Shown here: piece by piece, positions 17,132 through 41,663 of the stretch
Numbering within the stretch: the stretch's first letter is position 1
Layout of the letters: every line of letters starts with the position of its first letter
NCBI GenBank assembly: GCA_964561235.1
Contig: CAZLOV010000003.1
Location: 1-45,904, forward strand
Source: an uncultured Caulobacterales bacterium
GTDB taxonomy: Bacteria > Pseudomonadota > Alphaproteobacteria > Caulobacterales > Maricaulaceae
Direction of reading: 5' to 3'
DNA length: 45,904 nt
Made by a program: the position numbers and the translations under genes
The notes under the pieces: model-generated
What the model was told of the DNA's origin: nothing
The model's input: the letters and a program-made list of their open reading frames with translations, nothing else
Databases searched by the model: none

Positions 17132-18043
17132 TCATTTATTCTCCGGACGGACAAATGGCGGGGTAACCGCGATGATCCAGAGCTTCCGGAGTTTCGCCCA
17201 CCAGGCCAGCCCGTAGAGGAGCGGCGCCCGCCGCCGGCCGAATCTCGTCAGCGGGTGGGCATATCCGGCAAGGGGAGGCGGTCCGGCATGTCGCCACAGC
17301 TTCTTCAGGCCTGAAAGGGCGCCGGCGCCCCCCGCGGCGGCGTTCGGGATGAAGATGCCGGGATGTTCCGCCTTGAGCTGCTTCGCCCCTGCGGTGACCC
17401 GGGCTTCCTTGCGCATCAGCGCGCCGAACCCGCGCGGCGGGTGAATGACATAAGCGTCGGGCCGGAACCGCATGACGGCGCCGGCTTGTTCCGCGCGGCG
17501 TGCGAACTCCAGGTCGCCGCCCGACAACAACCCTCCGTCAAAGCGGCCGGCGCGTTCAAACAGCGCGCGCGTCACGGCGAGACAGGCGGTGAAGCCGTAA
17601 CGCTGCTGCTTGAAGGCCGCCGCGGAATTGAACTCGGTCAGACAGCTGTACATCTCCCCGAGCGTCCGGCAGGCCTCCGGTTCGATCCGGACGTCCGCAG
17701 CGACATAGTCCGCTGATGAGAGCGCATCCGCCATTGCGCCGAAAAATCCGTCGCCGAACCGGCAGTCGGCGTCGACGAAAACCAGAATGTCGCCGTGCGT
17801 CTCGGCGGCTCCGAGGTTTCGTGCAGCGTATGAACCGCTCTGGGGTTGCTGGATGATCTCGCGCACGCACCCGCCATGTTGCGCCACGACGGAGGAAACG
17901 CCGGCGTGGCCTCCGTCATTCACGACGACGGCGTCCAGCGCGATCTCCGCCGGCCAGGCGGTTGCGAGACTGTCGAGCGTGTCCGCCAGCCCGTCCGGAT
18001 CGTCGCCGCAGGGAATGATGAGGGTCCAAGAGCGCATCGGCAC
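17132..18043 (-). CDS. Family 2 glycosyltransferase
   Basis: LIIPCGDDPDGLADTLDSL, VVVNDGG, YAARNLGAAETHGDILVFVDADCRF (DxD). Convergent with the dehydrogenase gene, with 9 nt between the stops. Confidence 0.8.
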   Translation of the reverse strand: MPMRSWTLIIPCGDDPDGLADTLDSLATAWPAEIALDAVVVNDGGHAGVSSVVAQHGGCVREIIQQPQSGSYAARNLGAAETHGDILVFVDADCRFGDGFFGAMADALSSADYVAADVRIEPEACRTLGEMYSCLTEFNSAAAFKQQRYGFTACLAVTRALFERAGRFDGGLLSGGDLEFARRAEQAGAVMRFRPDAYVIHPPRGFGALMRKEARVTAGAKQLKAEHPGIFIPNAAAGGAGALSGLKKLWRHAGPPPLAGYAHPLTRFGRRRAPLLYGLAWWAKLRKLWIIAVTPPFVRPENK

Positions 18044-18134: not shown

Positions 18135-19679
18135 CTAGTCCGCTTTCCTCAGCAGGGCTCCAGACCGGCGCATCATCGTTCCAGCCATGGACCAGGCGAT
18201 CTGCTCCAGCCCGTCCGGCTTGCCCGCAGCGCGCCAGGCGGCGAGCACGGCCAGCAGGTAGGCGCACAGGGCGGCTCCGCCCAGAACGCCTATGTAAACA
18301 AGGCTGCCGAGCGCGGTGCCGTCCCAGCTCAACAGTGCGCCAAGAGACATCAGAACCGTCAGCATCGCCGCAGCGCCGATGGCGGGACGCGAGAGCGCGC
18401 CCAGCTGCCGGACATACTCCACGCCTGTCAGGCGCTTTGCGACGATGATCGTCACGGGCCAAAGCAGCACGGCGACCACCAGGCGCGCTGCGACGGCCCC
18501 GATCATGCCGAAGCTGGCGAAGCCGATCACAAGCGCCGGGATGAAAAGGGCGAACTCCACCGCACCCATGGCGGCGGCGTAGTGGGTGCGGTGAAGGGCG
18601 ACGCACGCCGACATCACGACATGCTTCTGCACCGCGATGAGAACCGGCAGGGTCAACAGGCTGACCCAGAGACCGGCTTGTTCCCAGCCCGGCCCCAGAA
18701 GGAGATAGGTCGCCGGTTCTGCAAGTATGGAGAACGACAGCACGATCGGCGCGGTCACCAGCGTGATCGCGGTGATCGCCTTGATGTAAGCGCCGCTGAG
18801 CCTCTGCTTGGCGTCGCTGAGCGTGAAGGCGGCTGCGAACGGCCGCAGAACGGGTTGGGCAACGATCGTGAAGGGCAGGTGCGCCAACGTCGAGGCGATG
18901 AAGTAAGCGCCCAGCTCCGCTTCCGTGATCCGGCCGCCGAGATAGAGCTTGTCGAATTGCCACAGAAGGGCGGAGAAGACGAGATTGACCGTCAACCAGC
19001 CCGCGAACTCGAAGAAGAAGCGCCATTCCTTCATTCGCAGACGAGGGGCATAGGGCGCCCAGATAAATGACATCGCTCCGCCTGCAATCGGCGCGACGAC
19101 CGCCCCCAGGGCGATCGCCCAATAGCTGCCGGTGCTCCAAGCCAGCGTCAGCGACACGATGAAGGCGGCCAGCTTGCTCGACACCTCGATGAAGAGCTCC
19201 GGCCGGGCGTCGAGGCGCCGGCTGTAGAGGACCATGCGCGGGCTTCGCACCGAACGCGCCAGGGGTGCGATGGCGAGCACCAGGACGAGCGGCGCCAGAC
19301 GCGGGTCGTCATAAATCGCCGCCGCCGGAAAGGCGGCTGCGGCGAGGAGGATCGCGGTGAGCAGGCCGCGGCCCAGGCTCAGCGTGAAGGCGGTGTCGAT
19401 CATCCGGCGCTGCAGCGGGCGCGCGCGCAGCAACGCCGCATAGAACGGAACCTCGAAAACCGTTTCGAGGATTTGCATCATCACGACCGCGATCGCGACC
19501 AGGCCGAAATCTTCCGGTGTCAGGAGCCGCGCGAGAAGCGTGATCGAGACAAGGTCGATGATCCGTGCGGCGAAGCGCGCGGCGATGAAACCGCCGCTTG
19601 CGGCCGTGGTGCGTTTTGCGATGGCTTGACGCCGCGACATGAGGGGCTGCTGGCTCCGTTCGGAGTAGGACGAGGGCAC
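18135..19679 (-). CDS. wzx: Polysaccharide/oligosaccharide flippase (MOP superfamily, Wzx-like)
   Basis: 514 aa with about 12-14 TM segments. The N-terminal pattern AARFAARIIDLVSITLLARLLTPEDFGLVAIAVVMM is typical of polysaccharide biosynthesis (PF01943/PF13440-type) proteins. An alternative ATG start is at 19640. Confidence 0.75.
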   Translation of the reverse strand: MPSSYSERSQQPLMSRRQAIAKRTTAASGGFIAARFAARIIDLVSITLLARLLTPEDFGLVAIAVVMMQILETVFEVPFYAALLRARPLQRRMIDTAFTLSLGRGLLTAILLAAAAFPAAAIYDDPRLAPLVLVLAIAPLARSVRSPRMVLYSRRLDARPELFIEVSSKLAAFIVSLTLAWSTGSYWAIALGAVVAPIAGGAMSFIWAPYAPRLRMKEWRFFFEFAGWLTVNLVFSALLWQFDKLYLGGRITEAELGAYFIASTLAHLPFTIVAQPVLRPFAAAFTLSDAKQRLSGAYIKAITAITLVTAPIVLSFSILAEPATYLLLGPGWEQAGLWVSLLTLPVLIAVQKHVVMSACVALHRTHYAAAMGAVEFALFIPALVIGFASFGMIGAVAARLVVAVLLWPVTIIVAKRLTGVEYVRQLGALSRPAIGAAAMLTVLMSLGALLSWDGTALGSLVYIGVLGGAALCAYLLAVLAAWRAAGKPDGLEQIAWSMAGTMMRRSGALLRKAD

Positions 19680-19917: not shown

Positions 19918-20892
19918 ATGATCTACAAATCGTACGCGGACATGGCCGTCTCGATCCGCAACGGTCGCGGCCGATTGCCCGCGAAGATAGATCTTGTCGT
20001 CGGCGTTCCGCGCAGCGGGATGGCGCCGGCGACGTTTCTCTCAGTGCTGCTGAACGCGCCGCTCGCGGATGTGGACGGCTTCATCAACGACCGGCTCCTC
20101 GAGGCGGGATCGACGAAGGTCCGGCCGGACTTCGAAGCCGCGCTTTCGGCGGATCGCTGCGTTCTCGTCATTGACGATTGCGTCGGCGCGGGCGCGTCCA
20201 TCCGCGAAATCCGGCGGCGCATCGAGGCGTCAGGCAAGCCCGGCCGCATCGTCTATTGCGCCGTCTACGCCATGACCGATCCCCATCCGGACGTGGATAT
20301 TGTGCTCGACATGGTCCCGCACCGTCCGCTGTTTGAATGGAACTTCATGCACAGCACGCTGTTGGCGAACGCGTGCTGCGATATTGATGGGGTTTTGTGC
20401 CCGAACGTGCCGCCTGCGGTTCAGCAGCAGGAAGCGCTCTATGCGGAGTATCTGAGAGAGACCCCGCCGCTATTGACCCCCAGCCGCAAGGTGGGCGTGC
20501 TGATTACGGGCCGCCGGGAAGCCTATCGCAGCGTGACCGAAGACTGGACGCGCCGTAACCGGGTCTCGTACGACGAACTCGTCATGGTGGGCGACGCAAG
20601 CGAAAGCCACGGCGAGGCGAAAGCCAGATACTACGCGCAGTCGCCGCACAGCCTTTTCATTGAGAGCGAGTATGTGCAGGCCACCGCCATTGCAGACATG
20701 TCGGGAAAGCCTGTGATCTGCATTGAAACAAATGAACTTCTGATCAAGGGGTCTTTCAGCCGTTCGGCCCGTGATCTCGTGAGTTCATCTGCAATCTCCC
20801 GCTGGAAGCTTTGGCTGCGCCAGCTTCTCGGCAATGAAGCCTATCACATGGCGAAACGCCTGGCTGGACGCCGACCCTCGCGCACATCCTGA
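19918..20892 (+). CDS. Two-domain protein: type I phosphoribosyltransferase-like N-domain fused to HAD-superfamily phosphatase-like C-domain
   Basis: N-domain: VVGVPRSGMAPATF and the PRPP-loop-like CVLVIDDCVGAGASIREI. C-domain: HAD motif I CCDIDGVLC (DxDGV), motif II-like VLITGRRE, motif IV-like LVMVGDASES. Confidence 0.7.
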   Translation: MIYKSYADMAVSIRNGRGRLPAKIDLVVGVPRSGMAPATFLSVLLNAPLADVDGFINDRLLEAGSTKVRPDFEAALSADRCVLVIDDCVGAGASIREIRRRIEASGKPGRIVYCAVYAMTDPHPDVDIVLDMVPHRPLFEWNFMHSTLLANACCDIDGVLCPNVPPAVQQQEALYAEYLRETPPLLTPSRKVGVLITGRREAYRSVTEDWTRRNRVSYDELVMVGDASESHGEAKARYYAQSPHSLFIESEYVQATAIADMSGKPVICIETNELLIKGSFSRSARDLVSSSAISRWKLWLRQLLGNEAYHMAKRLAGRRPSRTS

Positions 20893-21200: not shown

Positions 21201-22160
21201 GTGAACGACGAGCATGCAACAAACGGGGTCGGGCCACGCGTGACGCTGGCGATGCCGGTCTATAACGGCGAGCGCTATATCCGCGAGGCGATCGACTCGC
21301 TCCTCGGTCAGACTTTTCCCGATTTTGAACTGGTCATTACAGACAACGCCTCTGAAGACGCCACGCGCGACATCTGTGAGGCTTATGCAGCGTCGGATTC
21401 GCGCGTTCGTTATGTGCGCAATCCGGAGAATCTTGGCGCGGCGAAAAACTATAATCGCGGCTACGAACTGTCGCGCGGCGAATATCTCAAATGGTGCGCG
21501 CACGACGATATTGTCAGCGAAAATTACGTTGAAGCCTGCGTGGAGGCGCTTGACTCGGTTCCGACGGCCTCTGTCGCGTTCGGCCAGACAATAACGATCG
21601 ACGACGACGGAGAGATCATCCCGGAGGATCGACACGACTGGGTTGATGCTGTCGAGTTGCTTGATCCGGTTCCGCGCAATCGATTTCTGAAATCACTCCG
21701 GACGATGGGCACTTGCTTTCCCATCTTCGGATTGTTCCGCAAGTCGATGCTCGACAAAACAAGCCTTCATCGGCCGTTTTACGGTTCCGACCGGACATTG
21801 CTGTCCGAGACCGCCTTGCTGGGCGAATGGCTTCGTGTCGAGCAGGCGGTCTTCTACAATCGCGATCACCGCAAGCGGTCGATGCGCATCGTCGATCCGG
21901 CCGTGCGCGCCGCATGGCAGAACGGTCAAGCCAGCCGCCTCGCCACCGCCTCGCGCATCTCGCTCGCCATGCACCTCTGGGAGATCGCCGGGCGCCATCC
22001 CGATCTGAGCCCCGTCGGCCGGACGAGAATGGCGGCGCTCTCGCATATTGTTGAGCCGGGGAATCTCAGACGATACGCGCCGGAAGTGGTTCGTCTCGTG
22101 GCTCCGGGGATCATGGACCTGATCAAGGGTCGCAGAGCTTCCGCCAATCAGGACCAGTAG
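21201..22160 (+). CDS. Family 2 glycosyltransferase
   Basis: VTLAMPVYNGERYIREAIDSLLGQTFPDFELVITDNASEDAT, NPENLGAAKNYN, YLKWCAHDD (DxD-type). GTG start preceded by GGGGGGA. Confidence 0.8.
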   Translation: MNDEHATNGVGPRVTLAMPVYNGERYIREAIDSLLGQTFPDFELVITDNASEDATRDICEAYAASDSRVRYVRNPENLGAAKNYNRGYELSRGEYLKWCAHDDIVSENYVEACVEALDSVPTASVAFGQTITIDDDGEIIPEDRHDWVDAVELLDPVPRNRFLKSLRTMGTCFPIFGLFRKSMLDKTSLHRPFYGSDRTLLSETALLGEWLRVEQAVFYNRDHRKRSMRIVDPAVRAAWQNGQASRLATASRISLAMHLWEIAGRHPDLSPVGRTRMAALSHIVEPGNLRRYAPEVVRLVAPGIMDLIKGRRASANQDQ

Positions 22161-22162
22161 CC

Positions 22163-22939
22163 ATGAAAGTCGGTATTCTAGCTGGCGGATTGGGCTCGCG
22201 CCTCGCCGAGGAGACCGGCCTGCGGCCCAAGCCCATGGTCGAGATCGGCGGCATGCCGATCCTCTGGCACATCATGCAGATCTATTCCGCTCAGGGTTTC
22301 AACGAGTTCTGCATCGCGCTCGGCTACAAGGGCGAGTACGTCAAGAGCTGGTTCAAGGACTACATGACCGGCGCGGGATCGCTCTCGATCGACACGCGCT
22401 CCGGCGAGGTCGTCGCGCATCGCGACTGCCACATTCCCGACTGGCGCGTGGATCTGGTCGAGACGGGCGCGTCGACCCTGACCGGCGGGCGCATCAAGCG
22501 CCTGCAGCACTGGCTCGGCGAGGGGACCTGCATGGTGACCTGGGGCGACGGCGTCGCCGACATCGACCTGAAGGCGCTGCTCGATTTCCACCGCTCGCAC
22601 GGCAAGCTCTGCACGCTGACGGCGGTGCGGCCGCCCGCACGCTACGGCCATCTCGACATCCAGGGCGCCCAGATCACCAGCTTCACCGAGAAGCCCCAGA
22701 TCGGGGAGGGCTGGATCAACGGCGCGTTCTTCGTGCTGGAGCCGGGCGTGTTCGACTATATCGACGGCGACGACGTAATGTTCGAACACGCGCCGCTCTC
22801 CCGCCTCGCCGCCGACGGCCAGCTGATGGCCTACAAGCATGAAAGCTTCTGGCAGTGCATGGACACCATGCGCGAGAAGCAGATCCTCAACGATCTCTGG
22901 GCCGGCGGCGCCGCGCCCTGGAAACTCTGGAGCGAATAA
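22163..22939 (+). CDS. rfbF: Glucose-1-phosphate cytidylyltransferase
   Basis: MKVGILAGGLGSRLAEETGLRPKPMVEIGGMPILWHIMQIYSAQGFNEFCIALGYKGEYVK, near-canonical for RfbF. C-terminal FWQCMDTMREK. Confidence 0.9.
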   Translation: MKVGILAGGLGSRLAEETGLRPKPMVEIGGMPILWHIMQIYSAQGFNEFCIALGYKGEYVKSWFKDYMTGAGSLSIDTRSGEVVAHRDCHIPDWRVDLVETGASTLTGGRIKRLQHWLGEGTCMVTWGDGVADIDLKALLDFHRSHGKLCTLTAVRPPARYGHLDIQGAQITSFTEKPQIGEGWINGAFFVLEPGVFDYIDGDDVMFEHAPLSRLAADGQLMAYKHESFWQCMDTMREKQILNDLWAGGAAPWKLWSE

Positions 22940-22942
22940 GCC

Positions 22943-23992
22943 GTGAACGTCCTCCTCACCGGTCATCTGGGTTACATCGGCACCGTGCTGACGCCGCTCC
23001 TTCTTGAGGGCGGACACGACGTGTCGGGACTGGACAGCGATCTCTTCGCCGCCTGCACCTTCGAAGGCGAAATCGTCGACATACCTTGCGTCGGCGGCGA
23101 CGTCCGGCGCTTCACCGCCAACGCGGAAGCGGCCGTGGAGACGCTGTCGCGGTTCGACGCGGTGATCCACCTCGCCGGCCTGTCGAACGATCCGCTTGGC
23201 GACTACCGTCCGGAACTCACCCGCGAGATCAACGCGACGGCTTCGATCCGACTGGCCGAACTGGCCAAGCGCGCGGGCGTCTCGCGCTTCCTGTTTGCGT
23301 CGAGCTGTTCGAATTACGGCGCATCGGGCGACGATTTCATCGATGAAGGCGGCGTGTTCAATCCGGTCACGCCCTACGGCGTTTCCAAGGTCGAGGTGGA
23401 GCAGGCGGTCTCCGCGCTGGCCGATGAGCGTTTCAGCCCGCCCTTCCTGCGCGCCTCGACCGCCTATGGTCTCAGCCCGCGGCTTCGTTTCGACCTGGTG
23501 GTCAACAATCTCACCGCCTGGGCCTTCACGACCGGCGAGGTGCATCTAAAGAGCGACGGCAGCCCCTGGCGTCCGATCGTGCATGTGCGCGACATCGCGC
23601 ACGCCTACCGCGTGATCCTCGAAGCCGATCGCGCCGACGTGCACGCGCAGGCGTTCAATATCGGCCAGACGAGCGAGAACTATCAGATCCGCGAAATCGC
23701 CGAGATCGTGCGCGACGTCGTGCCGGGCGCGCGTCTTGGTTTCGCCAGCGACGCAGGGCCCGATGCTCGCAATTACCGGGTCGATTGCAATCATATCGCC
23801 CGGCGCCTGCGCGGCTGGAAGCCGCAATGGACCTGCCGCCGCGGCGTCGAGGAGCTCTACGACGCCTATGTCCGCACCGGCGTCACGCTCGACGAGTTCG
23901 AAGGCGAGCGCTACCGCCGCATCTCGCACGTGAAGAAGCTGATCGCCACGGGCGCGCTCTCGCCCGATCTGCAGCGTCTGGAGACCGTGTGA
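22943..23992 (+). CDS. NAD-dependent epimerase/dehydratase (extended SDR)
   Basis: Rossmann motif VLLTGHLGYIGTVL and catalytic YGVSK. It does not show the motif pattern I associate with RfbG-type CDP-glucose 4,6-dehydratases, so the exact activity is unassigned. Confidence 0.75.
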   Translation: MNVLLTGHLGYIGTVLTPLLLEGGHDVSGLDSDLFAACTFEGEIVDIPCVGGDVRRFTANAEAAVETLSRFDAVIHLAGLSNDPLGDYRPELTREINATASIRLAELAKRAGVSRFLFASSCSNYGASGDDFIDEGGVFNPVTPYGVSKVEVEQAVSALADERFSPPFLRASTAYGLSPRLRFDLVVNNLTAWAFTTGEVHLKSDGSPWRPIVHVRDIAHAYRVILEADRADVHAQAFNIGQTSENYQIREIAEIVRDVVPGARLGFASDAGPDARNYRVDCNHIARRLRGWKPQWTCRRGVEELYDAYVRTGVTLDEFEGERYRRISHVKKLIATGALSPDLQRLETV

Positions 23993-23996
23993 GGCC

Positions 23997-25247
23997 ATGA
24001 CCGGACCTGTCCAATCCACCTCGCGCACCGAGACCGCCTGCCGCTCCTGCGGGTCGGCGTCGCTCTCGCCGGTGCTCGACCTGGGCCGCACGCCGCTCGC
24101 CGACCGGCTGATCGATCCCGCGCGCGCAGGCGAACCGGAGCCGGTGTTTCCGCTGAAGGTCGTCTTCTGCGAGGACTGCACCCTCGTGCAGATCACTGAA
24201 ACGGTGGCGCCGGAAATCCTCTTTGCGGACGCGTATCCGTATTATTCGAGCTTCTCGCCCGCCTTGCTGGCGCATTCGCGCGCCAACGCGCTCGACCGCC
24301 TGGCCGAACGCCGGCTCGGACCGGACAGCCTGGTCGTCGAGCTGGCGAGCAATGACGGCTATCTGCTCAAGAACTACGTCGAGGCCGGCGTGCCCGTGCT
24401 TGGAATCGATCCCGCCGAAGGGCCTGTGAAGGCCGCGCGCGAGGCCGGGGTGCGCACGGAGCTCGCCTTCTTCACCCGCAGCCTCGCCGAGCGCCTCGCC
24501 GCCGAAGGGGTCCGCGCCGACATCGTCCACGCCAACAACGTGCTGGCTCACGTGGCCGACACGAACGGCTTCGTCGCCGGGATCGCCGCGCTCCTGAAGG
24601 ACGACGGCGTGGCGGTGATCGAGGCGCCTTATCTCAAGCCTCTGATCGATCACGTTGAATTCGACACGATCTATCATGAGCACCTGTGCTATTTCTCGGT
24701 CACCGCGCTGGATGCGCTGTTCCGCCGGCACGGTCTTCATCTCAACCGCATCGAGCATCTCGCCATCCATGGCGGGTCGCTGCGCCTGTTCGTGGAGACG
24801 CGCGAAGACAAGCAATCCAGCGTGCTGGATCAGCTCGCGCTCGAGACGGCCGAGGGTCTCGATCGTCTGGCGTATTTCCTCGATTTCTCCGACCGCGTCG
24901 CTGCGCTGCGCGACCGGCTGACCTCGGAGCTTGCCCGTCTGAAGGGCGAAGGCGCCCGGATCGCCGCCTACGGCGCGGCGGCGAAGGGTGCGACCATGCT
25001 GAATTTCTGCGGCGTCGGCGCCGATGCGCTGGACTTCGTGGTCGACCGCAACGTGCACAAGCAGGGCAAGCTGATGCCCGGCGCCCGGCTTCCGGTGCTT
25101 CCGCCCGAGGCCTTGCTGGAGCGCCGGCCGGATTACACGCTCGTGCTCGCCTGGAATTTCGCAGACGAAATCCTGGAGCAGCAGGCGGCCTACCGCGAGG
25201 CGGGCGGCCGCTTCATCATTCCCGTTCCCGAATTTCACATCGTCTGA
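23997..25247 (+). CDS. SAM-dependent NDP-hexose C-methyltransferase-like protein (TylCIII architecture)
   Basis: N-terminal Cys4 ribbon (CRSCGS ... CEDCTLVQ), then ADAYPYYSSFSP, SAM motif VVELASNDGYLL, and a C-terminal C-methyltransferase-type domain (IAAYGAAAKGATMLNFCG ... FVVDRNVHKQGKLMPG). Confidence 0.8.
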   Translation: MTGPVQSTSRTETACRSCGSASLSPVLDLGRTPLADRLIDPARAGEPEPVFPLKVVFCEDCTLVQITETVAPEILFADAYPYYSSFSPALLAHSRANALDRLAERRLGPDSLVVELASNDGYLLKNYVEAGVPVLGIDPAEGPVKAAREAGVRTELAFFTRSLAERLAAEGVRADIVHANNVLAHVADTNGFVAGIAALLKDDGVAVIEAPYLKPLIDHVEFDTIYHEHLCYFSVTALDALFRRHGLHLNRIEHLAIHGGSLRLFVETREDKQSSVLDQLALETAEGLDRLAYFLDFSDRVAALRDRLTSELARLKGEGARIAAYGAAAKGATMLNFCGVGADALDFVVDRNVHKQGKLMPGARLPVLPPEALLERRPDYTLVLAWNFADEILEQQAAYREAGGRFIIPVPEFHIV

Positions 25248-26648: not shown

Positions 26649-27863
26649 GTGAGCCGGCGCGTCGTCATCATCAATGACGAGGCTGTCGCCAAGGGCGGCG
26701 CGACGGGTCTCGCCGTCAAGGCCGCGATCGGGCTTTCGCGACGGGGCCGCGACGTCAGCTTCATCGCCCGCAAGCCGCAGTCGGAGCCGCGGGATCTCCA
26801 GGACGCGGGCGTGACGCTTGACTTGATTGAGGGCGTGCGGGTCGGGACCGGCGGGGCGGGAGGCCTTGTTTCAGGCCTGTGGAACGCCGAGGCGGCGCGC
26901 CGCGTCGCGGAAACCGTCGCGCAGGAGCCGTCCGACACCGTGTTTCACGTCCACAACTGGACGCACTTTCTTTCGCCCGCGATCCTCGCCGCCCTGAAGC
27001 CCGTCTGGCCGCGCACGGTCCTTCACGCGCATGACATGTTCCTGTTCTGCCCGAACGGGGCGTACTTCAACTACAGAACCGATCGCGACTGCACGCTCAC
27101 CGGCGGCGGCGCAGCCTGCGCGGCGGTCAATTGCGACAAGCGCAACCGCGCCCACAAGCTCTGGCGCGTGGCCCGGCACTGGACCAGACAGGCGGCGCTC
27201 GACCTTGCCCGTTTTGGCGGGCGCATCGCGCTCATCCACCCGGGCCAGCGGCCGTATTTCGAGGCGCACGGCGTTCCGGGCGAGGTGCTCGTCGATCTGC
27301 GCAATCCCGTGGCGGCCTGCGAAGCGCCGCGCGTGGAAGCCGAGCGCAACGCCATGGTGCTGTTCCTCGGGCGCATGACCAGCGCGAAGGGCCCCGACCG
27401 GCTGCTCGAGGCGGCGCGGCGCGCGGGCGCGCCCGCCGAACTCGCCGGCGACGGCGAACTCAGAACGGCGCTTGAGGCCGCCTATCCCGAGGCGGCCTTC
27501 CATGGGCACGTGTCCGCCGAGGCCGTGCAGGCGCTGCTTCGCCGCGCGCGTGTCGTGGCGATGCCGAGCCGCGCGCCCGAGCCTTTCGGGCTCGTCGCGT
27601 GTGAAGCGCTCGCCGCGGGCGTGCCGGTGATCGCCAGCAGCAATGCGCTCGTTGCGGGGGAGATCGAAGCGGGCGGCGCCGGACTTGCGCTCGACATGGA
27701 CGACATCGACGGTTTCGCCGCTGAACTCCGTGCGCTGACCGGCGACGACCAGCGCGTCAGGGCGATGAGCGAGGCGGCTCGCGCGACCGCGTTTTCGATC
27801 GCCTCTCGTGAAGAGGCCTGGCTCGACGGACTGGAGGCGCTCTACGCGGAGCGGCTCCGTTAA
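26649..27863 (+). CDS. Family 4 (GT-B) glycosyltransferase
   Basis: N-terminal VVIINDEAVAKGGATG and C-terminal EPFGLVACEALAAGVPVIAS (EX7E region). Confidence 0.8.
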   Translation: MSRRVVIINDEAVAKGGATGLAVKAAIGLSRRGRDVSFIARKPQSEPRDLQDAGVTLDLIEGVRVGTGGAGGLVSGLWNAEAARRVAETVAQEPSDTVFHVHNWTHFLSPAILAALKPVWPRTVLHAHDMFLFCPNGAYFNYRTDRDCTLTGGGAACAAVNCDKRNRAHKLWRVARHWTRQAALDLARFGGRIALIHPGQRPYFEAHGVPGEVLVDLRNPVAACEAPRVEAERNAMVLFLGRMTSAKGPDRLLEAARRAGAPAELAGDGELRTALEAAYPEAAFHGHVSAEAVQALLRRARVVAMPSRAPEPFGLVACEALAAGVPVIASSNALVAGEIEAGGAGLALDMDDIDGFAAELRALTGDDQRVRAMSEAARATAFSIASREEAWLDGLEALYAERLR

Positions 27864-27877
27864 GGGGGAAGACGACG

Positions 27878-29047
27878 GTGCGCGTGCGCCTGCTCAACGT
27901 CGCCTACAGCGCCAATCTCGGGGACGGCCTCCTGGCTGAATGCCTCTCCGCACGCCTGCGCGCCGCGCGGCCGGAGCTTGAGATCGAATGGGTCGACCTG
28001 AGCGGCCGCACGCGGTTCGGCACGGTCGGCGGCGGCGGACGCGGCCTGCTCCTGAAGATGCTCACGGCGTCCCCCGGGCCGGTCCGGCGCGCGGGCGTCC
28101 TGATGGCGCACGCCTATCTCCGCCGGAAGACGCTTGCGCCCCATTTCGGGACAGCGCTGGCCGGCGCGGAAGCCCTGATCATCGGGCCGGGCGCCCTGAT
28201 CGCGGATCAGGATCTCAACTTCCCCGTCAAAATCGCCGCCGCCCTGGCCTCGCCCGCGGCGGCGGACGCGCCGGTGCACGTCTATGGCGTCGGCGTCGGC
28301 GGCGCCTTTTCGCCGCGCGGCGAGGCCCTGTTCCGCCATGCCTTCTCCGCCCGCCGCGTGGCGAGCGTGGCGGTGCGCGACAGCGTCTCCGCCGAACGCT
28401 GGAACAAGGGCCTTGGTGGGGCCGCCGGATGCCCGGCGCAGGTCGTTTTCGATCCCGGCGTTCTGACGAGCCGGGTCTGGCCGGAGCCTGAAGCCGGGCG
28501 CGGACCGCTGCGCATCGGCGTGATGAGCCCGTCGGAGATCGCCTATCACGCCGGGGGCAGCGCGACTGCGCCCGGAGCCGCGCTGGAATGGTACGGCGTC
28601 CTTGTCGAAAGACTGCGTGCGGCCGGGTGCGAAGTCGAACTGTTCAATAACGGAGGACCGCCCGATCGGGCCTTCATGAGGCGGCTGTCGGATTTCATCG
28701 CCGATCGGGGCGCTGAGCGTCCCGCATGCATACAGCCGGAGACCCCGGAAGACCTGGCCCGCGTCGTGGCGGGCTCGCGCGGCGTGATCGCACACCGCCT
28801 GCACGCGGTGGTCCCCGCCTTCTCCTACGGCGTTCCGGCCGTCTCGCTGGGCTGGGACGGCAAGGTGGCCGCCTTCGCCGAAGCGGTGGGACGCAGCCGG
28901 TGGCATGCCGCCGGATTCTCAGCGCCGCCGGAGAACATGGCGCGACTCCTGCTGGAGGCCGTGGAGGCCAAGGCCTGCGGAGATGATCGGAGTGGAGTGC
29001 TGGACGCCGCGGACGCGCAGATCGCTGCGCTCGCGGCGCGGCTCTGA
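27878..29047 (+). CDS. Polysaccharide pyruvyl transferase family protein
   Basis: N-terminal NLGDGLLAECL and C-terminal GVIAHRLHAVVPAFSYGVPAVSLGWDGKV, the pattern of the PS_pyruv_trans family. GTG start after GGGGGAAGA. Confidence 0.7.
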   Translation: MRVRLLNVAYSANLGDGLLAECLSARLRAARPELEIEWVDLSGRTRFGTVGGGGRGLLLKMLTASPGPVRRAGVLMAHAYLRRKTLAPHFGTALAGAEALIIGPGALIADQDLNFPVKIAAALASPAAADAPVHVYGVGVGGAFSPRGEALFRHAFSARRVASVAVRDSVSAERWNKGLGGAAGCPAQVVFDPGVLTSRVWPEPEAGRGPLRIGVMSPSEIAYHAGGSATAPGAALEWYGVLVERLRAAGCEVELFNNGGPPDRAFMRRLSDFIADRGAERPACIQPETPEDLARVVAGSRGVIAHRLHAVVPAFSYGVPAVSLGWDGKVAAFAEAVGRSRWHAAGFSAPPENMARLLLEAVEAKACGDDRSGVLDAADAQIAALAARL

Positions 29048-29077
29048 TCCCGCAGTTTCAGGGAGGAGCCGCACATC

Positions 29078-30067
29078 ATGAAAGTCCTCGTCGTCGGTGG
29101 AGCCGGCTATATCGGCGCTCATGTCTGCAAGGCCCTCGCGGCGCGCGGCGATGAGCCGATCGTTTTTGACAGCCTCGTCTCGGGACATCGCCACGCCGTG
29201 CGCTGGGGGCCGCTGTTCAAGGGCGACATCCGCGACAGCGCAGCCCTGGACGCCTGTTTCGACGCGCACAAGCCGGACGCCGTCATGCATTTCGCCGCCT
29301 GCATCGAGGTGGCCGAGGGGCAACGCGAGCCCTTGCGCTTCTGGGAGAACAATGTCGGCGGGGTCGTCACGCTGCTCAAGTCGATGGCGCGCGCGGGCGT
29401 CAAGCCGCTTGTTTTCTCCTCGACCTGTGCGACCTACGGCGAGCCGGAGAGCCTTCCGATCACCGAGGCGGAGCCGCAAACGCCGGTCAACGTCTATGGC
29501 CGGACCAAGCTCGCCGTCGAACGTCTGCTGGCCGACGTGGCCTCAGTGGACGGGGTCCGGTTCGCCGCGCTGCGATACTTCAATGCGGCCGGCGCGAGCC
29601 CGGATGGCGAGATCGGGGAGGAGCACGACCCGGAAACGCACCTGATCCCGAACGCGCTGAAGGCGGCCGCCGGCATCGGCCCGGCGATGAAGCTCTTCGG
29701 CGACGATTATGACACGCCCGACGGCACATGCGTGCGCGACTACATCCATGTGATGGACCTCGCCGACGCCCATCTCGCGGCGCTCGACCGGTTGGCGGGC
29801 GGAGCGGCCTCCTTCGCCTGCAATCTCGGCACGGGAGACGGCTTTTCGGTGCGCCAGATTCTTGACGCCGTCCACGCCGTCACCGGCCGCCCCGTGCCGC
29901 ACGACATCGCTCCGCGCCGGCCGGGCGATGCGGCCCGCCTCGTCGCGGATATACGCCGCGCGCGAGAATTGCTGGACTTCCAGCCCCGCTTGTCCGATCC
30001 CGAAACAATTATTCGGCATGCGTGGGCGTTTCATGCCTCGAAATGGAACATCGCAGCCTGCGGCTGA
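29078..30067 (+). CDS. galE: UDP-glucose 4-epimerase
   Basis: MKVLVVGGAGYIGAHV, FSSTCATYGEP, YGRTKLAVE, LRYFNAAGA, VRDYIHVMDLADAH. RBS GGGAGGAG. Confidence 0.9.
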   Translation: MKVLVVGGAGYIGAHVCKALAARGDEPIVFDSLVSGHRHAVRWGPLFKGDIRDSAALDACFDAHKPDAVMHFAACIEVAEGQREPLRFWENNVGGVVTLLKSMARAGVKPLVFSSTCATYGEPESLPITEAEPQTPVNVYGRTKLAVERLLADVASVDGVRFAALRYFNAAGASPDGEIGEEHDPETHLIPNALKAAAGIGPAMKLFGDDYDTPDGTCVRDYIHVMDLADAHLAALDRLAGGAASFACNLGTGDGFSVRQILDAVHAVTGRPVPHDIAPRRPGDAARLVADIRRARELLDFQPRLSDPETIIRHAWAFHASKWNIAACG

Positions 30068-30197
30068 GACTGACGGAGCCGCTGAGCCCGTTGCCGGCGG
30101 ACGGCTGACCGCGGCCGGCTTGGCAGGCGGCGTGCAAGACCGCGAGGTGCGTCCGTTTCCGGGGCGCGCGGAAGCGCCGAAGGCGCGCGGGCACGCC

Positions 30198-31367
30198 GTG
30201 AAAGTCGCGATCATTCATTACTGGCTTGTGGGCATGCGCGGGGGCGAGAAGGTTCTCGAGGCGCTCTGCCGCATGTTCCCGGATGCGGACATCTACACCC
30301 ATGTCCATGACCCCGCCGCCACCAGCGACGCGATCCGCGCCCACAGGATCCGCGAAACCGGCATAGGCCGGCTGCCCTTCGCGCGCCGTCTTTACCAGTC
30401 CTACCTGCCGTTGATGCCCGCTGCGCTCGAGGCGCTGGACCTGTCGGGCTATGATCTCGTGATCTCCAGCGAGGCCGGACCGGCCAAGGGCGTCATCCCG
30501 CCGCCGGATGCGCCGCATGTGTGCTACTGCCACTCGCCGATGCGCTATCTCTGGGACCAGTACCATGTGTACCGGCGGGGCGCCGGCCTGGCGGCGCGCA
30601 CGGCCATGCCGATCTTCGCGCCCGGCCTTCGGCGCTGGGACGTGACCAGCGCGGCGCGGGTGGACGCTTTCGCCGCCAATTCGAGCCATGTCGCCGCGCG
30701 CATCCGCAAATACTGGCGGCGCGAGGCTGAAATCGTCCATCCGCCGGTGGAGGTGGACGCCTTCACGCCGGCGCCGGCGGATGAGCTGGGTGATTTCTAT
30801 CTCTGGCTCGGCGAGCTGGCGCCCTACAAGCGCCCCGATCTCGCCGTCGACGCATTCACCCGGATGAAAAAGCCCCTCGTCGTCATTGGCGGGCCTGACA
30901 AGGCTGTGCGGGCGCTCCAGCGCCGGGCGGGCGAAACCGTCCGCTTTCTCGGCAAGACGGATTTCGAAACGCTCCGGAATCACCTCGCACGCTGCAAGGC
31001 GCTGATCTTTCCGGGCGAGGAGGATTTCGGGATCGTGCCGGTGGAGGCCGCCGCATCCGGCCGGCCCGTGATCGCCTACGGCCGCGGAGGCGCGCTCGAG
31101 ACCGTAATCGACGGACACACCGGCCTGCATTTCCAGGATCAGTCGGTCGAGGGCCTGATCGCAGCGGTGGAGCGTTTCGAGGCGGAAAAGCTCGACCGGC
31201 TGGATCCGTCCAGCCTGCTCGCCCATGCGCGCCGCTTCGACGAGACGCATTTCCGCGCAGGCATGGCGCGCGTACTCGCCAGTCAGGGAATAGGCGTGGA
31301 GCTGCCGGAAGAGCATCGCGGTCCTCACGGACTGGAGCGCCGGAGCCTTTCAGGAGCGGTGTTCTGA
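30198..31367 (+). CDS. Family 4 (GT-B) glycosyltransferase
   Basis: GTG start giving VKVAIIHYWLVGMRGGEKVLEAL, and C-terminal GEEDFGIVPVEAAASGRPVIAYGRGGALETV. The upstream 112 codons in the ORF track overlap galE. Confidence 0.8.
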   Translation: MKVAIIHYWLVGMRGGEKVLEALCRMFPDADIYTHVHDPAATSDAIRAHRIRETGIGRLPFARRLYQSYLPLMPAALEALDLSGYDLVISSEAGPAKGVIPPPDAPHVCYCHSPMRYLWDQYHVYRRGAGLAARTAMPIFAPGLRRWDVTSAARVDAFAANSSHVAARIRKYWRREAEIVHPPVEVDAFTPAPADELGDFYLWLGELAPYKRPDLAVDAFTRMKKPLVVIGGPDKAVRALQRRAGETVRFLGKTDFETLRNHLARCKALIFPGEEDFGIVPVEAAASGRPVIAYGRGGALETVIDGHTGLHFQDQSVEGLIAAVERFEAEKLDRLDPSSLLAHARRFDETHFRAGMARVLASQGIGVELPEEHRGPHGLERRSLSGAVF

Positions 31368-32470
31368 TGTCGCGGCATATCTATCTGAACGGAAAGTTCG
31401 CCGGCCGGAACCTGACAGCCGTCGACCTCGTCGCATCGGAATACTTCAAGGCCTTCCGTCGACTGATCGCTGATCCTGCTTCGTCCTGGAGCCTTGATGA
31501 TTTCACCGTCCTGCTGCGGAGCCGGGAGGCCGCCTCCGATCCGTGCGTGCAGGGCTTCAACCTCCAGATCATTCCGTCTCGGAACGGGCTGCTGTGGGAG
31601 CACATCCTGGCTCCGCGCGCGGCGCAAGACGGCATCCTTCTCAATCTGTGCAATCTCGGTCCGGTTCTGCACTCCAACGCCGTCACGCTCATTCACGACG
31701 CTCAGGTCTTCGATACGCCCGCAAGCGCCAGCGCGGCGTTCAACGCCTATTACAGGTCCGTCTATCTCGGCATCGGCCGACGCCATCTCCGCATCGCCAC
31801 GGTCTCGGAGTATTCGAAGGGCCGCCTGATCGCCAACGGCGTCGCACCGGCCGAGCGCATCGTCGTCATCCCCAACGGCGTCGATCACGCCCTTGAAACC
31901 CCGCGCGACGACCGCGTCCTTGGCAAGTTCGGCCTTGAAGCGCAGCGATATGTCGTCGCGCTCGCAAACCCGAAGCATCACAAGAACACGCAAGTGCTCA
32001 TCCGCGCTTTCGGCGGCTGGCCGGACCCGGGCGTGCGGCTCGTGCTCTTCGGCAACGGCTCGCCTGAGGCGTTCGGGGTCGAGCCGGGCGAGCCGGTGGT
32101 GTTTACGGGCCGGATTTCCGATGGCGAACGGCGAAGCCTTTATGAGAATGCGCTGTGTCTGGCTGCGCCGGCGCGCCATGAAGGCTTCGGTTTGACGCCC
32201 GGCGAAGCCATGGCCCTTGGCTGTCCCGTCGTGTTGGCTCGCGAGGGCGCTCTGCCGGAGGTGGGCGCGGAGGCGGCCATCTACGCGCCGGCGGACGATC
32301 CTGCCGCCTGGCGAGATGCGTTCCAGCGGCTGCGTGATCAGCCGGAGGAACGATTGCGCCGTTCGCGCGCCAGCCTGGAGCGCGCCCGCGATCTCAGTTG
32401 GGACAGCGCAGCGCGGCGCATGCTTGAAACGCTCGAGGACGTGTCCCGGGATCAGGCCGATGCTGCGTGA
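31367..32470 (+). CDS. Family 4/1 (GT-B) glycosyltransferase
   Basis: HEGFGLTPGEAMALGCPVVLAREGALPEV. The start overlaps the previous stop (TGATG). Confidence 0.8.
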   Translation: MSRHIYLNGKFAGRNLTAVDLVASEYFKAFRRLIADPASSWSLDDFTVLLRSREAASDPCVQGFNLQIIPSRNGLLWEHILAPRAAQDGILLNLCNLGPVLHSNAVTLIHDAQVFDTPASASAAFNAYYRSVYLGIGRRHLRIATVSEYSKGRLIANGVAPAERIVVIPNGVDHALETPRDDRVLGKFGLEAQRYVVALANPKHHKNTQVLIRAFGGWPDPGVRLVLFGNGSPEAFGVEPGEPVVFTGRISDGERRSLYENALCLAAPARHEGFGLTPGEAMALGCPVVLAREGALPEVGAEAAIYAPADDPAAWRDAFQRLRDQPEERLRRSRASLERARDLSWDSAARRMLETLEDVSRDQADAA

Positions 32471-32659
32471 GCCTGGAGGAAGCGCGTCTCTGTCCGCCCG
32501 CCGCGCCGGGCCGGCGCTCGTCGGCCGGCTGGATCGTTTCGGTACAAAGCATCGCGGTCAGGCGGCCCGAGGCTTGCGCTGGACGGGCCAGCGCACAGAA
32601 TGCCGCCGACGGGCGGCGCTGTCGGGTTTCAGGCTGTGCGTAACAGGTCGGGAAAAGAC

Positions 32660-33559
32660 ATGACCAACGCTAATGCTCTTCTCAAGGTCACCGTGGGCAT
32701 CGCCAGCAAGGGGCGGCCGGAAGACCTCGCCGTGATGGCGCGCCGGCTCGCCGGGCAGAGCGTGGCGCCCCACCGGGTGATCTACTCGGTCACGGGTGAA
32801 GAGGACCTGCCGCCGCGCGAGACCCTGCCGGAATGGATCGAGATCCTCGTCGGTTCTCCCGGGCTGTGCGCGCAGCGCAACCGTATTCTCGACGCAGCGC
32901 TGGAAGACAGCGACGTCATCGCTTTTTTCGACGACGACTACATTCCCGAGCGCGAAGCGGTCCGCATGATTGCTGAAGCCTTCGCCGCGCATGAGGACGT
33001 CGCCGGGTTCTGCGGCGCGCTGCTTGCCGACGGCATCCTTGGACCGGGGCTCGATCTTGAAGAGGCCGAAGCGCTGGTCGACGCGCATGACGCCGGCGCT
33101 GTGACCGTCGAGCGCCGTCTTGTCCGCGACAGCGAGGGGCTTTACGGCTGCAACATGGCCTATCGCGCCAGCGCGGTCGGCGAGACGCGGTTCGACGAGA
33201 CGCTGCCGGCCTACGCCTGGCAGGAGGACACCGATTTCGCCGGCCAGATCGCGCGGTTCGGCCGCACCTGCGCAAGCACCTATTTCTACGGCGTGCACCG
33301 CGGCGTGAAACGCGCCCGCGCGCCCGGCGTGAAGCTCGGCTACGCGCAGATCGCCAATCCGGTGTATCTCATGCGCAAGGGCACCATGTCCGGCCGGTTC
33401 GCGCGCAGGCTGATGGTTCGCAACGTGATCGCCAACCACGTGAAGGTGTTGCGTCCCGAGCCCTGGGTGGATCGCGCCGGCCGGGTGAAAGGCAACTGGA
33501 TCGCATTTCGTCACTGGATGACGGGAAAGCTTCATCCGGCCCGCTTCAATCAGCTCTGA
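32660..33559 (+). CDS. GT-A (family 2-like) glycosyltransferase
   Basis: KVTVGIASKGRPEDL and IAFFDDDYIPE (DxD). The start is uncertain (32660 or 32600). Confidence 0.6.
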   Translation: MTNANALLKVTVGIASKGRPEDLAVMARRLAGQSVAPHRVIYSVTGEEDLPPRETLPEWIEILVGSPGLCAQRNRILDAALEDSDVIAFFDDDYIPEREAVRMIAEAFAAHEDVAGFCGALLADGILGPGLDLEEAEALVDAHDAGAVTVERRLVRDSEGLYGCNMAYRASAVGETRFDETLPAYAWQEDTDFAGQIARFGRTCASTYFYGVHRGVKRARAPGVKLGYAQIANPVYLMRKGTMSGRFARRLMVRNVIANHVKVLRPEPWVDRAGRVKGNWIAFRHWMTGKLHPARFNQL

Positions 33560-33587
33560 CCCTGTCGGATCAGGAGCGCTCCGGCGA

Positions 33588-35000: not shown

Positions 35001-35082
35001 TAAACGATGAACAAACGGTTGATGTTAACTTTAAATACATGCAAAACTTCGTAAATCGAGTTCTCGGGGTGAAACGGCGCTC

Positions 35083-35655
35083 ATGAAATTTCTAGTGTTC
35101 CTCTTGAGCATGATCGTGCTCGCCGGCTGTGCTTCCGGACCCGGAAGCCCTGCGGGTCCTGCATCCGGCGCGCCGACGACCGAGGAAATCCTCGCAACCG
35201 AATACACGCTCGGCGCCGGCGATAACGTGCGCATCATCGTGTTCGGCGAGGAAAACCTCTCAGGCGAGTTTCTGGTCGACGGGTCAGGGGCGGTGTCGCT
35301 GCCGCTGGTCGGCGAGGTGGCCGCACAAGGCCGTACGCTGGACGAATTCCGCGCGGCCGTGCAGGCGCGTCTGGCGGACGGGTATCTCAATGATCCGCGC
35401 GTCAGCGCCGAGGTGATCACCTTCCGGCCGTTCTACATTCTCGGCGAGGTGCAGGATGCGGGCGAGTATCCCTACACAGACGGCCTCACCGTGATCAACG
35501 CGGTCGCGCGCGCCGGCGGCTTCACCTACCGGGCGCGCCGCCAGACGGTGTTCATTCAGCGGGCGGGGGAGAGCGAGGAACGCGAGGTGCCGCTCACGCC
35601 AGCCACCCGCGTGTTTCCCGGCGACACGATCCGCATCGCAGAACGCTTCTTCTAG
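35083..35655 (+). CDS. wza: Short polysaccharide export (OPX/Wza-family) lipoprotein
   Basis: Lipobox VLAGC. Poly_export motif YTLGAGDNVRIIVFGEENLSGEFLVDGSGAVSLPLVGEV.AQGRTLDEF and one SLBB-like segment (FYILGEVQDAGEYPY). Only 190 aa, with no C-terminal membrane-spanning helix region. Confidence 0.8.
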   Translation: MKFLVFLLSMIVLAGCASGPGSPAGPASGAPTTEEILATEYTLGAGDNVRIIVFGEENLSGEFLVDGSGAVSLPLVGEVAAQGRTLDEFRAAVQARLADGYLNDPRVSAEVITFRPFYILGEVQDAGEYPYTDGLTVINAVARAGGFTYRARRQTVFIQRAGESEEREVPLTPATRVFPGDTIRIAERFF

Positions 35656-35677
35656 GACCCAGACATAGGGCGGCGCC

Positions 35678-37492: not shown

Positions 37493-37590
37493 CGCCAAAT
37501 GCTTTTGCGGATTCCCCGGAATTGCGGAATTTGTCCGTTGGTTAATGGAATGATAATAGGTATTTTAGTTGCGATAGAGGGGAGACTGCT

Positions 37591-38025: not shown

Positions 38026-38074
38026 TCTCCGGCGGGATCGAGGGGCGGCCCCCGCGCCGCAGGAGATTGAGACG

Positions 38075-39346: not shown

Positions 39347-39438
39347 TTTGCATTACTTGATAAAAGAAGGAAACCAAAGTCAGCGCCGCCCCAGAACGGG
39401 ACGGCGCGTCGACCTTAGCGAGGGTCCGGGACACCGCC

Positions 39439-41640: not shown

Positions 41641-41663
41641 CGGTGCTTCGGCGCCACACCTAA

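Follow-up and report, generated by a model that had tools for sequence, protein, structure and literature searches.

How ribofuranose enters bacterial glycans has been explained only recently, by the PRP-gPRT enzymes and by three-component systems. In the prototype dual-domain PRP-gPRT, an N-terminal phosphatase is followed by a C-terminal transferase (PMC11294581). The three-component pentofuranose systems combine a UbiA-type polyprenyl-phosphoribose synthase, a HAD phosphatase and a periplasmic glycosyltransferase (GT) of the GT-C class, and they form alpha-linkages. CriT, from Bcs3 of Haemophilus influenzae type b, measures about 440 residues, includes three helical bundles and has been called a previously undescribed GT fold; its catalytic core is an alpha/beta structure resembling phosphoribosyltransferases (PRTases), in which phosphoribosyl pyrophosphate (PRPP) was docked by homology to HGPRT, APRT, OPRT and UPRT, and the accompanying CrpP retains only the first aspartate of motif I. 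Here, we describe a protein of 324 residues that joins an N-terminal PRTase domain to a C-terminal HAD-type phosphatase domain (PRT-HAD). Its gene lies in a polysaccharide locus within a 45,904-nucleotide stretch of DNA from an uncultured Caulobacterales bacterium (contig CAZLOV010000003.1; the whole stretch is referred to as the window). We consider it fairly probable that PRT-HAD is an independently assembled, cytoplasmic, PRPP-dependent ribofuranosyl-adding enzyme. An initial annotation of the window had proposed PRPP-dependent addition of ribofuranose followed by dephosphorylation. This two-step prediction is the best-supported reading of the data and gains strength from the Wzx/Wzy loci that carry the gene across many genera and from a family member, Mll5269, that lies among the exo genes of Mesorhizobium japonicum; the equivalence to the characterized dual-domain enzyme that had been suggested, however, fails as homology.

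The open reading frame (ORF) was taken from the ORF list and its translation and runs from an ATG to a stop codon (Table 1). Full-length homologues begin at the same methionine, and AGGA is found about 10 nucleotides 5' of this start. A scan of positions 19500-21400 for promoter and terminator consensus sequences gave no sigma-70 or terminator sites. All five peptide strings quoted in the initial annotation are present in the translation, namely VGVPRSGMAPATF (residues 28-40), VLVIDDCVGAGASIREI (82-98), CCDIDGVLC (153-161), VLITGR (194-199) and VMVGDASES (222-230). An AlphaFold2 model of the protein was built on 54 homologues, and the statements on conservation in this family refer to the alignment of the same number of homologues.

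The N-terminal half was correctly recognized at the outset as a type I PRTase. Pfam PF00156 matches residues 7-107 with 29.7 bits, above its gathering cut-off of 26.3, while NCBIfam gives only sub-threshold matches to orotate, xanthine, hypoxanthine and adenine PRTases. Foldseek aligned the whole model with probability 1.0 to HGXPRT, XGPRT and purine PRTases at identities of 15-23%; the best folds in the Protein Data Bank (PDB) were those of Sulfolobus solfataricus HGXPRT, Pyrococcus horikoshii purine PRT, Helicobacter pylori XGHPRT and Escherichia coli XGPRT. The five-stranded parallel-sheet core of the PRTases is present, with TM-scores (normalized to the target) of up to 0.66 to XGPRT/HGXPRT, and the best 50 PDB matches of the whole model are classical type I PRTases throughout. 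The catalytic loops are conserved as well. The pyrophosphate (PPi) loop aligns with the 'ARGG'-type loop of the purine PRTases and the PRPP loop (VLVID86D87...G92) with their VVDDVxDTG, and hidden Markov model alignment to 4z1o and 7kl6 reveals a shared C-terminal F-x-W-D/N motif, of which the tryptophan is W141 in PRT-HAD. R136 and P137 align with the Trp-Ile of the 'KWI' in S. solfataricus HGXPRT, in a comparison that rests on sequence alignment and not on a ligand-bound structure, and are Pro/Arg and non-aromatic across the PRT-HAD family; we take the tryptophan of 'KWI' to be the purine-stacking residue, equivalent to W134 of E. coli XGPRT. With its catalytic loops invariant and this tryptophan replaced, the N-domain therefore has an intact PRPP machinery, but a purine pocket is not obviously retained.

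For the C-terminal half, no Pfam or NCBIfam model covers the window protein, and the family members give scattered weak Pfam matches to Acid_phosphat_B, HAD_PNKP, HAD_SAK_2 and LNS2. The family profile matches the phosphatase domain of Pnkp1 (4xrp) with an E-value of 3.2e-5. The model of the C-domain (residues 136-324, pLDDT 87.9) has weak best folds, namely Pnkp1 (1.1e-3), T4 PNK (1.3e-2), the class B acid phosphatase/nucleotidase AphA (3.7e-2) and plant VSP (9.5e-2). Pnkp1, T4 PNK and AphA act on ribose or deoxyribose phosphate monoesters. Motif I aligns with CDLDGTL of Pnkp1, and its D155 is the predicted nucleophile. The position of motif IV reads E-S-E instead of the usual D-D (DD or GDxxxD) and aligns with YFVE of Pnkp1. 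Because of these motifs, the Pnkp1 profile match and the weak fold matches, the C-terminal half is assigned as a divergent HAD phosphatase, closest to the PNKP/AphA type. The HAD motifs named in the initial annotation thus stand for motif I (D155-x-D157-G-V) and motif II (T197 in VLITGR), both of which are invariant, but VMVGDASES had been misassigned as the third motif; it is a variable, indel-prone segment, and the conserved elements are K235 and FIESE.

The protein ends in a cationic helical tail. The net charge of the last 50 residues has a median of +9 and ranges from +5 to +13 among the homologues, G305 is invariant, and R301, Y309 and K313 occur in at least 90% of them. A scan for transmembrane (TM)-like segments found none in the protein. 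An amphipathic character of the tail was considered and rejected, as its hydrophobic moment of 0.5 is no higher than that of the rest of the protein and only the positive charge stands out. The tail might serve as an anchor to the membrane or to an acidic polymer.

A search with the window protein returned 1,855 protein clusters at E<=1e-3, and one with a Mesorhizobium member 2,113 at E<=1e-60; relatives are encoded in at least 539 species-representative genomes. The hosts include nearly all Mesorhizobium species, Paracoccus, Hyphomonas, Sphingomonas, Sphingobium, Caulobacter, Microvirga, Salinarimonas, Sinorhizobium kostiense and Ensifer. PRT-HAD is thus a large, uncharacterized and mostly alphaproteobacterial family, the members of which were seen annotated as 'phosphoribosyltransferase family protein' or 'uncharacterized HAD superfamily protein/PRTase'. 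We surveyed the neighbourhoods of 88 loci, 59 from Mesorhizobium and 29 from other genera. Of the 59 Mesorhizobium loci, 56 have the gene for the flippase Wzx immediately upstream in the same orientation; among the 29 others, it borders the PRT-HAD gene in about 19. Further neighbours encode GT2 and GT4 glycosyltransferases, Wzz/GNVR co-polymerases, Bac_transf priming enzymes, GH16 glycanases and Wzy. In the window itself, Pfam bears out the flippase upstream and the GT2 downstream that the initial annotation had pointed out, and the next gene after PRT-HAD likewise encodes a GT2 in loci of Sphingomonas and Paracoccus. A neighbour-joining tree divides the family into two clades. The window protein, whose closest genome match is a metagenome-assembled genome at 52% identity, groups with P0002 (52% identity), P0003 (47%) and P0011 (45%), all of which are in polysaccharide loci.

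The link to ribose comes from Mesorhizobium. Mll5269 of M. japonicum MAFF303099 (BAB51748.1, Q98C73) was identified by cluster look-up as a member of the family; its alignment with the window protein covers 279 residues at 43% identity (E 2e-83). According to the published accounts, the exo cluster of strains R7A and MAFF303099 spans mlr5249-mlr5276; the R7A exopolysaccharide (EPS) is built of an octasaccharide with five glucoses (Glc), one galactose (Gal), one glucuronic acid (GlcA) and a terminal beta-D-riburonic acid (RibfA, an oxidized ribofuranose), and mutants in mlr5265 and mlr5266, which bear no gene names, are symbiotically impaired. In the Mll5269 locus, exoP-N-O-M-A-L and exoT precede the gene, and on the other strand after it follow genes for a GT4, a 149-residue protein, a GMC oxidoreductase, a UDP-glucose dehydrogenase (UGDH), ExoK, a 133-residue protein and ExoU. 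Gene order and numbering lead us to infer that mlr5265 encodes the UGDH, mlr5266 the GMC oxidoreductase, mlr5267 the small protein and mlr5268 the GT4. In succinoglycan synthesis, Gal is laid down first by the priming enzyme ExoY, and the glucoses come from ExoA, L, M, O and U. By analogy, ExoY, A, L, M, O and U would account for Gal and the five Glc of the M. loti repeat, and the GT4 is the natural candidate for the alpha-GlcA, so that no conventional GT would be left for RibfA. PRTases invert alpha-PRPP to give a beta-riboside; a single inverting transfer would thus match the beta anomer of the M. loti residue. The S. meliloti megaplasmids have no PRT-HAD homologue; pSymB carries the succinoglycan locus, and succinoglycan lacks ribose.

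The genes next to Mll5269 may also explain the oxidized form of the sugar. The pair of a GMC oxidoreductase and a small protein accompanies PRT-HAD in 52 of the 59 Mesorhizobium loci, as well as in Sphingomonas, Hyphomonas, S. kostiense, Ensifer and on a plasmid of Rhodobacter sp. CZR27. The 149-residue protein of MAFF303099 starts with a twin-arginine signal (MIEVTRRSALAILAGG...), and in its Rhodobacter counterpart the twin-arginine signal reads MRLNRRRALQLAGA.... A twin-arginine small subunit typically carries periplasmic GMC-type dehydrogenases through the twin-arginine translocation (Tat) system. The signal on the small partner therefore suggests that the pair is a candidate periplasmic oxidase, which would convert ribofuranose (Ribf) to riburonic acid after flipping. 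In MAFF303099, the genes of the pair occupy positions 12193-14227 of locus L095, and the pair is also found in loci L003 and L094. In our literature search, mll5269 and its accessions were not mentioned and the family was nowhere connected to ribose; two recent papers on the EPS mention neither ribose nor PRPP.

We propose the following steps for the reaction. PRT-HAD would be a soluble or peripheral cytoplasmic enzyme that installs ribofuranose on a polysaccharide repeat unit in two steps. In the first, the PRTase domain would bind PRPP and move its ribose 5-phosphate, with inversion, to a hydroxyl of an undecaprenyl-diphosphate-linked oligosaccharide, giving a beta-linked Ribf 5-phosphate; in the second, the HAD domain, with D155 as the nucleophile, would take off the 5-phosphate. 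Wzx would then flip the finished repeat unit. In relatives that occur with the Tat-exported GMC oxidoreductase (Mesorhizobium, Sphingomonas, Hyphomonas, Rhodobacter and others), the 5-hydroxyl would probably be oxidized in the periplasm to give riburonic acid. What the data show are the identities of the domains, the conservation of the catalytic motifs, the association of the gene with polysaccharide loci and the occurrence of a member in a cluster that makes a RibfA-containing product; we infer the donor, the acceptor, the order of the steps, the oxidation and the association with the membrane. Taken further, the proposal is that PRPP-dependent ribofuranosylation of glycans evolved at least twice, that the PRT-HAD family is a second class serving Wzx/Wzy pathways, and that, together with the Tat-exported GMC oxidoreductase, it is the source of the terminal riburonic acid of the M. 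loti EPS, the ligand of the Lotus receptor EPR3; to this wider statement we give an even chance.

The compact module on the plasmid of Rhodobacter sp. CZR27 (L094, 10774-19316) comprises two PRT-HAD paralogues, a GT4, Wzx, an acyltransferase and the GMC pair. It has only one conventional GT for two PRT-HAD paralogues, which speaks for the proposed role of PRT-HAD. The second paralogue (PRT2) has LPGGG where the VPRSG of the PPi loop is otherwise invariant. The glycine in place of the invariant arginine would suit a reading in which the domains are uncoupled, the PRTase-like part being a PRPP or nucleotide sensor (PurR- or PyrR-like) or a precursor modifier and the HAD part acting on another sugar phosphate or on a lipid intermediate. 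Non-catalytic type I PRTase folds do exist, the family profile weakly matches the Pur operon repressor, and HAD sugar-phosphate phosphatases are generally common in polysaccharide loci. We nevertheless hold this reading to be quite unlikely: the PPi-loop arginine, the acidic pair and the phosphate loop are invariant in the 54 homologues, the fusion is kept in more than 2,000 protein clusters, and the exo cluster holds no other candidate enzyme for the ribose-derived residue of the M. loti EPS.

Several observations weigh against the assignment as a ribofuranosyl-adding enzyme. The first group concerns the protein itself. The nearest sequence and fold relatives of the N-domain are nucleobase PRTases, so that an N-nucleophile may be the acceptor; the fold matches of the C-domain are weak, at 1e-3 or worse, and its motif IV is unusual. 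The second group concerns the family. The Mesorhizobium proteins that are linked to the chemistry fall in the other major clade, at the 43% identity given above for Mll5269, and within the clade of the window protein a marine Rhodobacterales subclade of 322-residue proteins lies outside polysaccharide loci. Its genes (loci L005, L090 and L092) stand by themselves in changing surroundings, beside PBP1C/alpha-2-macroglobulin and psd/pssA, AsmA, or a gene resembling nonribosomal peptide synthetases. None of these contexts is a polysaccharide locus, and the substrate of this subclade may therefore differ. The homologue of Rhizobium etli CIAT 652 likewise lies near ribose transport and rpiB and not in an EPS cluster. 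On plasmid pC (L093), it is annotated as a 432-residue hypothetical protein and stands beside a peptidase and two genes away from a 758-residue glycosyltransferase, with ribose ABC transporter genes, rpiB and a RuBisCO-like protein within about 12 kb. Homologues also occur on plasmids or chromids of Rhizobium, S. fredii, Paracoccus and Rhodobacter, and to our knowledge the characterized EPSs of S. fredii and Rhizobium are free of ribose. The third group concerns the literature. For S. meliloti IFO13336, riburonic acid is reported to be alpha-linked, which would not follow from a single inversion giving the beta-riboside, and the searchable literature yielded no family member that had been tested biochemically or genetically.

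The kinship with purine PRTases, the resemblance of the HAD domain to the nucleotidase AphA and the members outside polysaccharide loci would all fit a small-molecule riboside synthase, in which the PRTase would join PRPP to a nucleobase or to some other N- or O-nucleophile and the HAD domain would free the riboside, the product being a nucleoside-like metabolite, a signal or a salvage product with no relation to the glycan. This is an unlikely account, since in many genera Wzx and GT genes are found next to PRT-HAD and a member sits inside the M. japonicum exo cluster, whose product has an unexplained ribose-derived residue. The non-aromatic position aligned with the purine PRTase tryptophan and the conserved cationic tail also speak against it.

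The Wzx/Wzy polysaccharide locus of the window spans about 17.1 to 42.5 kb; its genes were assigned by Pfam and the scan for TM-like segments, and the features within it are collected in Table 1. The flippase gene is divergent from the PRT-HAD gene, with a gap of 238 bp to its start. The guanine-cytosine (GC) contents of the PRT-HAD gene (0.616) and of the downstream GT2 gene (0.596) are the lowest in the locus, the neighbours having 0.65-0.72; this low GC suggests that the two form a laterally acquired or serotype-variable cassette. Over positions 19500-22500, which hold both genes, GC drops to 0.59-0.63. The nucleotidyltransferase, dehydratase-like enzyme and C-methyltransferase that follow form a nucleoside diphosphate-hexose trio, and the polymer probably also contains a C-methyl-branched deoxyhexose. 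No homologue of the GMC oxidoreductase, its small Tat partner or UGDH was found in the window at E<1e-8 and at least 50% coverage; lacking a GMC oxidase, the window is therefore predicted to specify a polymer with plain Ribf, not riburonic acid. A 437-residue ORF inside the locus (25235-26548, minus strand) has no Pfam match and no TM-like segment, with a low GC content at third codon positions (GC3) of 0.69, and may not be a real gene.

The remaining part of the locus encodes, in order, a GT4, a pyruvyltransferase, an epimerase, a GT4, a GT2-like protein and a 470-residue protein with 8 TM segments, and then Wza, a Wzy_C protein, a BBP2 porin, a Wzz/GNVR kinase and a Bac_transf priming transferase. 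Two of these are multi-TM proteins, at 33588-35000 (470 residues, 8 TM-like segments, no Pfam match) and at 35678-37492 (604 residues, Wzy_C). One of them suffices as the polymerase, which leaves the second as a possible ligase-like enzyme or GT-C. The presence of two multi-TM proteins, only one of which is needed as Wzy, would leave room for a lipid-linked donor: the PRTase would put ribose 5-phosphate on undecaprenyl phosphate, the HAD domain would dephosphorylate it, and the undecaprenyl-phosphate-linked Ribf would be flipped for a periplasmic GT-C. Three-component systems do use PRPP and a HAD phosphatase fused to the synthase, and the cationic tail might recruit the protein to the membrane. 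We regard this route as very unlikely, however. The known polyprenyl-phosphoribose synthases are integral-membrane proteins of the UbiA family, whereas PRT-HAD is not a UbiA protein according to Pfam, lacks TM-like segments and has a soluble type I PRTase fold; neither the M. japonicum cluster nor the compact Rhodobacter module has a GT-C candidate; and a route with two inversions would give alpha-Ribf, yet the M. loti residue is beta.

Table 1. Location of the PRT-HAD gene, its domains and motifs, and the surrounding polysaccharide locus in the window (residue numbers are those of the PRT-HAD protein).
Feature	Position	Strand	Basis
PRTase-HAD fusion ORF	19918..20892	+	ORF list; homologue starts; AlphaFold2 model with pLDDT 92.3 and pTM 0.82
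Type I PRTase domain, residues 1 to ~134	19918..20319	+	PF00156; Foldseek; profile matches 4z1o, 7kl6, 1vdm
PPi-binding loop G29-V-P31-R32-S33-G34	20002..20019	+	G29, P31, R32, G34 invariant; S33 in at least 90% (54 homologues)
PRPP (ribose 5-phosphate) binding loop, residues 81-94 CVLVIDDCVGAGAS	20158..20199	+	D86, D87, G92 invariant
Domain junction, residues 133-145 VPHRPLFEWNFMH	20314..20352	+	W141 invariant; N142, H145 nearly so
HAD-type phosphatase domain, residues ~146-275	20353..20742	+	Pnkp1 profile match; motifs; C-domain fold matches
HAD motif I C153-C-D155-I-D157-G-V159	20374..20394	+	C153, D155, D157, G158, V159 invariant
HAD motif II L195-I-T197-G-R199	20500..20514	+	T197, R199 invariant; aligns with LLSGR of Pnkp1
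HAD motif III lysine K235	20620..20622	+	Invariant
HAD motif IV position F247-I-E249-S250-E251	20656..20670	+	F247, E249, S250 invariant; E251 in at least 90%
Cationic helical tail, residues 282-324	20761..20889	+	Two helices; lower pLDDT
GT2 glycosyltransferase, left edge of locus	17132..18043	-	Pfam
Wzx-type flippase	18135..19679	-	Polysacc_synt_3 7.5e-50; 12 TM-like segments
GT2 glycosyltransferase, 308 bp downstream of PRT-HAD	21201..22160	+	Glycos_transf_2 1e-32
Nucleotidyltransferase, 4,6-dehydratase-like enzyme and sugar C-methyltransferase	22163..25247	+	NTP_transferase; Epimerase/GDP_Man_Dehyd; Methyltransf_14 and Methyltransf_13
Rest of the Wzx/Wzy locus	26649..42460	+	Pfam; scan for TM-like segments

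Outside the polysaccharide locus, positions 30-3375 encode in a row a bchG-like UbiA prenyltransferase, a protein of the PucC/LhaA family and a geranylgeranyl-reductase-like FAD protein (bchP). This region resembles part of a photosynthesis gene cluster, and these genes therefore mark the organism as a phototroph (purple or aerobic anoxygenic), in agreement with the label that it had been given initially. Sequence matches to the window come solely from metagenome assemblies, among them those of microbial mats. The following ~2.2 kb (3376-5633) contain only overlapping ORFs on both strands, none of which passes the GC3 filter, and an Rfam scan of 3300-5700 gave no match. A 1,191-residue subtilase-family S8 peptidase is encoded at 5634-9209, flanked by the photosynthesis genes on one side and by an AcrAB-OEP efflux operon (10179-15819) on the other.

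If PRT-HAD acts as proposed, it would represent a third solution to a recently solved problem, derived from an ordinary nucleotide-type PRTase, and would show that the chemistry of ribofuranosylation is readily reinvented. A function could then be given to mll5269 and a likely one to the GMC oxidoreductase encoded beside it, and a residue of a symbiotically important EPS would be explained; the product of the mll5269 cluster controls the infection of Lotus by Mesorhizobium. The presence of the gene in a genome would also be a ready sign of ribose or riburonic acid in the EPSs of rhizobia, sphingomonads, Paracoccus, Hyphomonas and phototrophs, and a compact enzyme of 324 residues working on cheap PRPP could serve glycoengineering.

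Among the known systems, the PRP-gPRT enzymes (the Klebsiella pneumoniae O-antigen prototypes, 7shg of Thermobacillus composti and STM0726 of Salmonella) share the chemistry proposed here for PRT-HAD: PRPP as the donor, transfer of beta-Ribf 5-phosphate to a glycan and 5-dephosphorylation by a HAD-family domain in the same polypeptide, all in the cytoplasm. Nevertheless, there are distinguishable differences. The first is the domain order, since in PRT-HAD the PRTase precedes the HAD domain, the reverse of PRP-gPRT. The second is the nature of the domains: the transferase of PRT-HAD is a compact, canonical type I PRTase that PF00156 recognizes and its HAD domain is PNKP/AphA-like. The gPRT of 7shg is reportedly strongly divergent from known PRTases. 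The third is the pathway; the characterized PRP-gPRT examples considered here belong to ABC-transporter-dependent pathways (PMC11294581; title of PMC11231755), whereas PRT-HAD occurs in Wzx/Wzy loci.

The transferase CriT and phosphatase CrpP of Bcs3, and Cj1432 of Campylobacter jejuni, likewise combine a PRPP-dependent ribofuranosyltransferase activity with a subsequent HAD-like phosphatase activity. In Bcs3 and Cj1432, the phosphatase precedes the transferase and both are domains within multi-enzyme capsule polymerases. The N-domain of PRT-HAD has about 135 residues, far from the size of CriT with its three helical bundles, and D155 and D157 are both invariant, unlike in CrpP. The common domain classes, a PRPP-dependent transferase and a HAD phosphatase, and the PRTase-like core of CriT could be taken to mean that PRT-HAD is a rearranged orthologue of the PRP-gPRT or CrpP-CriT family; we judge this extremely unlikely, and membership in a known Ribf-GT family was rejected. 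Besides the reversed order, a profile of the 54 family members, with which all chain sequences of the PDB were searched at E<=10, returned 49 matches with neither 7shg nor Bcs3 among them, and 7shg is absent from the 50 best fold matches of the whole model and from those of the C-domain, the nearest folds being different. The invariant catalytic aspartate D155 (D-x-D-G-V) is common to all HAD phosphatases and does not discriminate. The transferase domains of PRT-HAD and of CriT/gPRT share an ancient PRTase core at most.

The three-component systems, including the mycobacterial DPPR synthase Rv3806c, likewise draw ribose from PRPP and remove the 5-phosphate before use; their synthase is an integral-membrane UbiA protein, whereas the PRT-HAD protein is soluble. 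A further parallel exists outside the glycans: BtrL/BtrP (NeoL/NeoP) of butirosin and neomycin synthesis are reported to attach phosphoribose from PRPP to a sugar hydroxyl of neamine, with a dedicated phosphatase acting afterwards; there the two activities reside on separate proteins, and the substrate is a small-molecule aminoglycoside. The closest relatives of all in sequence and fold remain the purine PRTases (4z1o/5bqp, 7kl6, 1vdm and 1nul), with which PRT-HAD shares the aligned PPi loop, PRPP loop and F-x-W-D/N motif. It differs from them in its low identity and in Pro/Arg in place of the 'KWI' tryptophan, and goes beyond them in its fused phosphatase, its cationic tail and the place of its gene in a polysaccharide locus.

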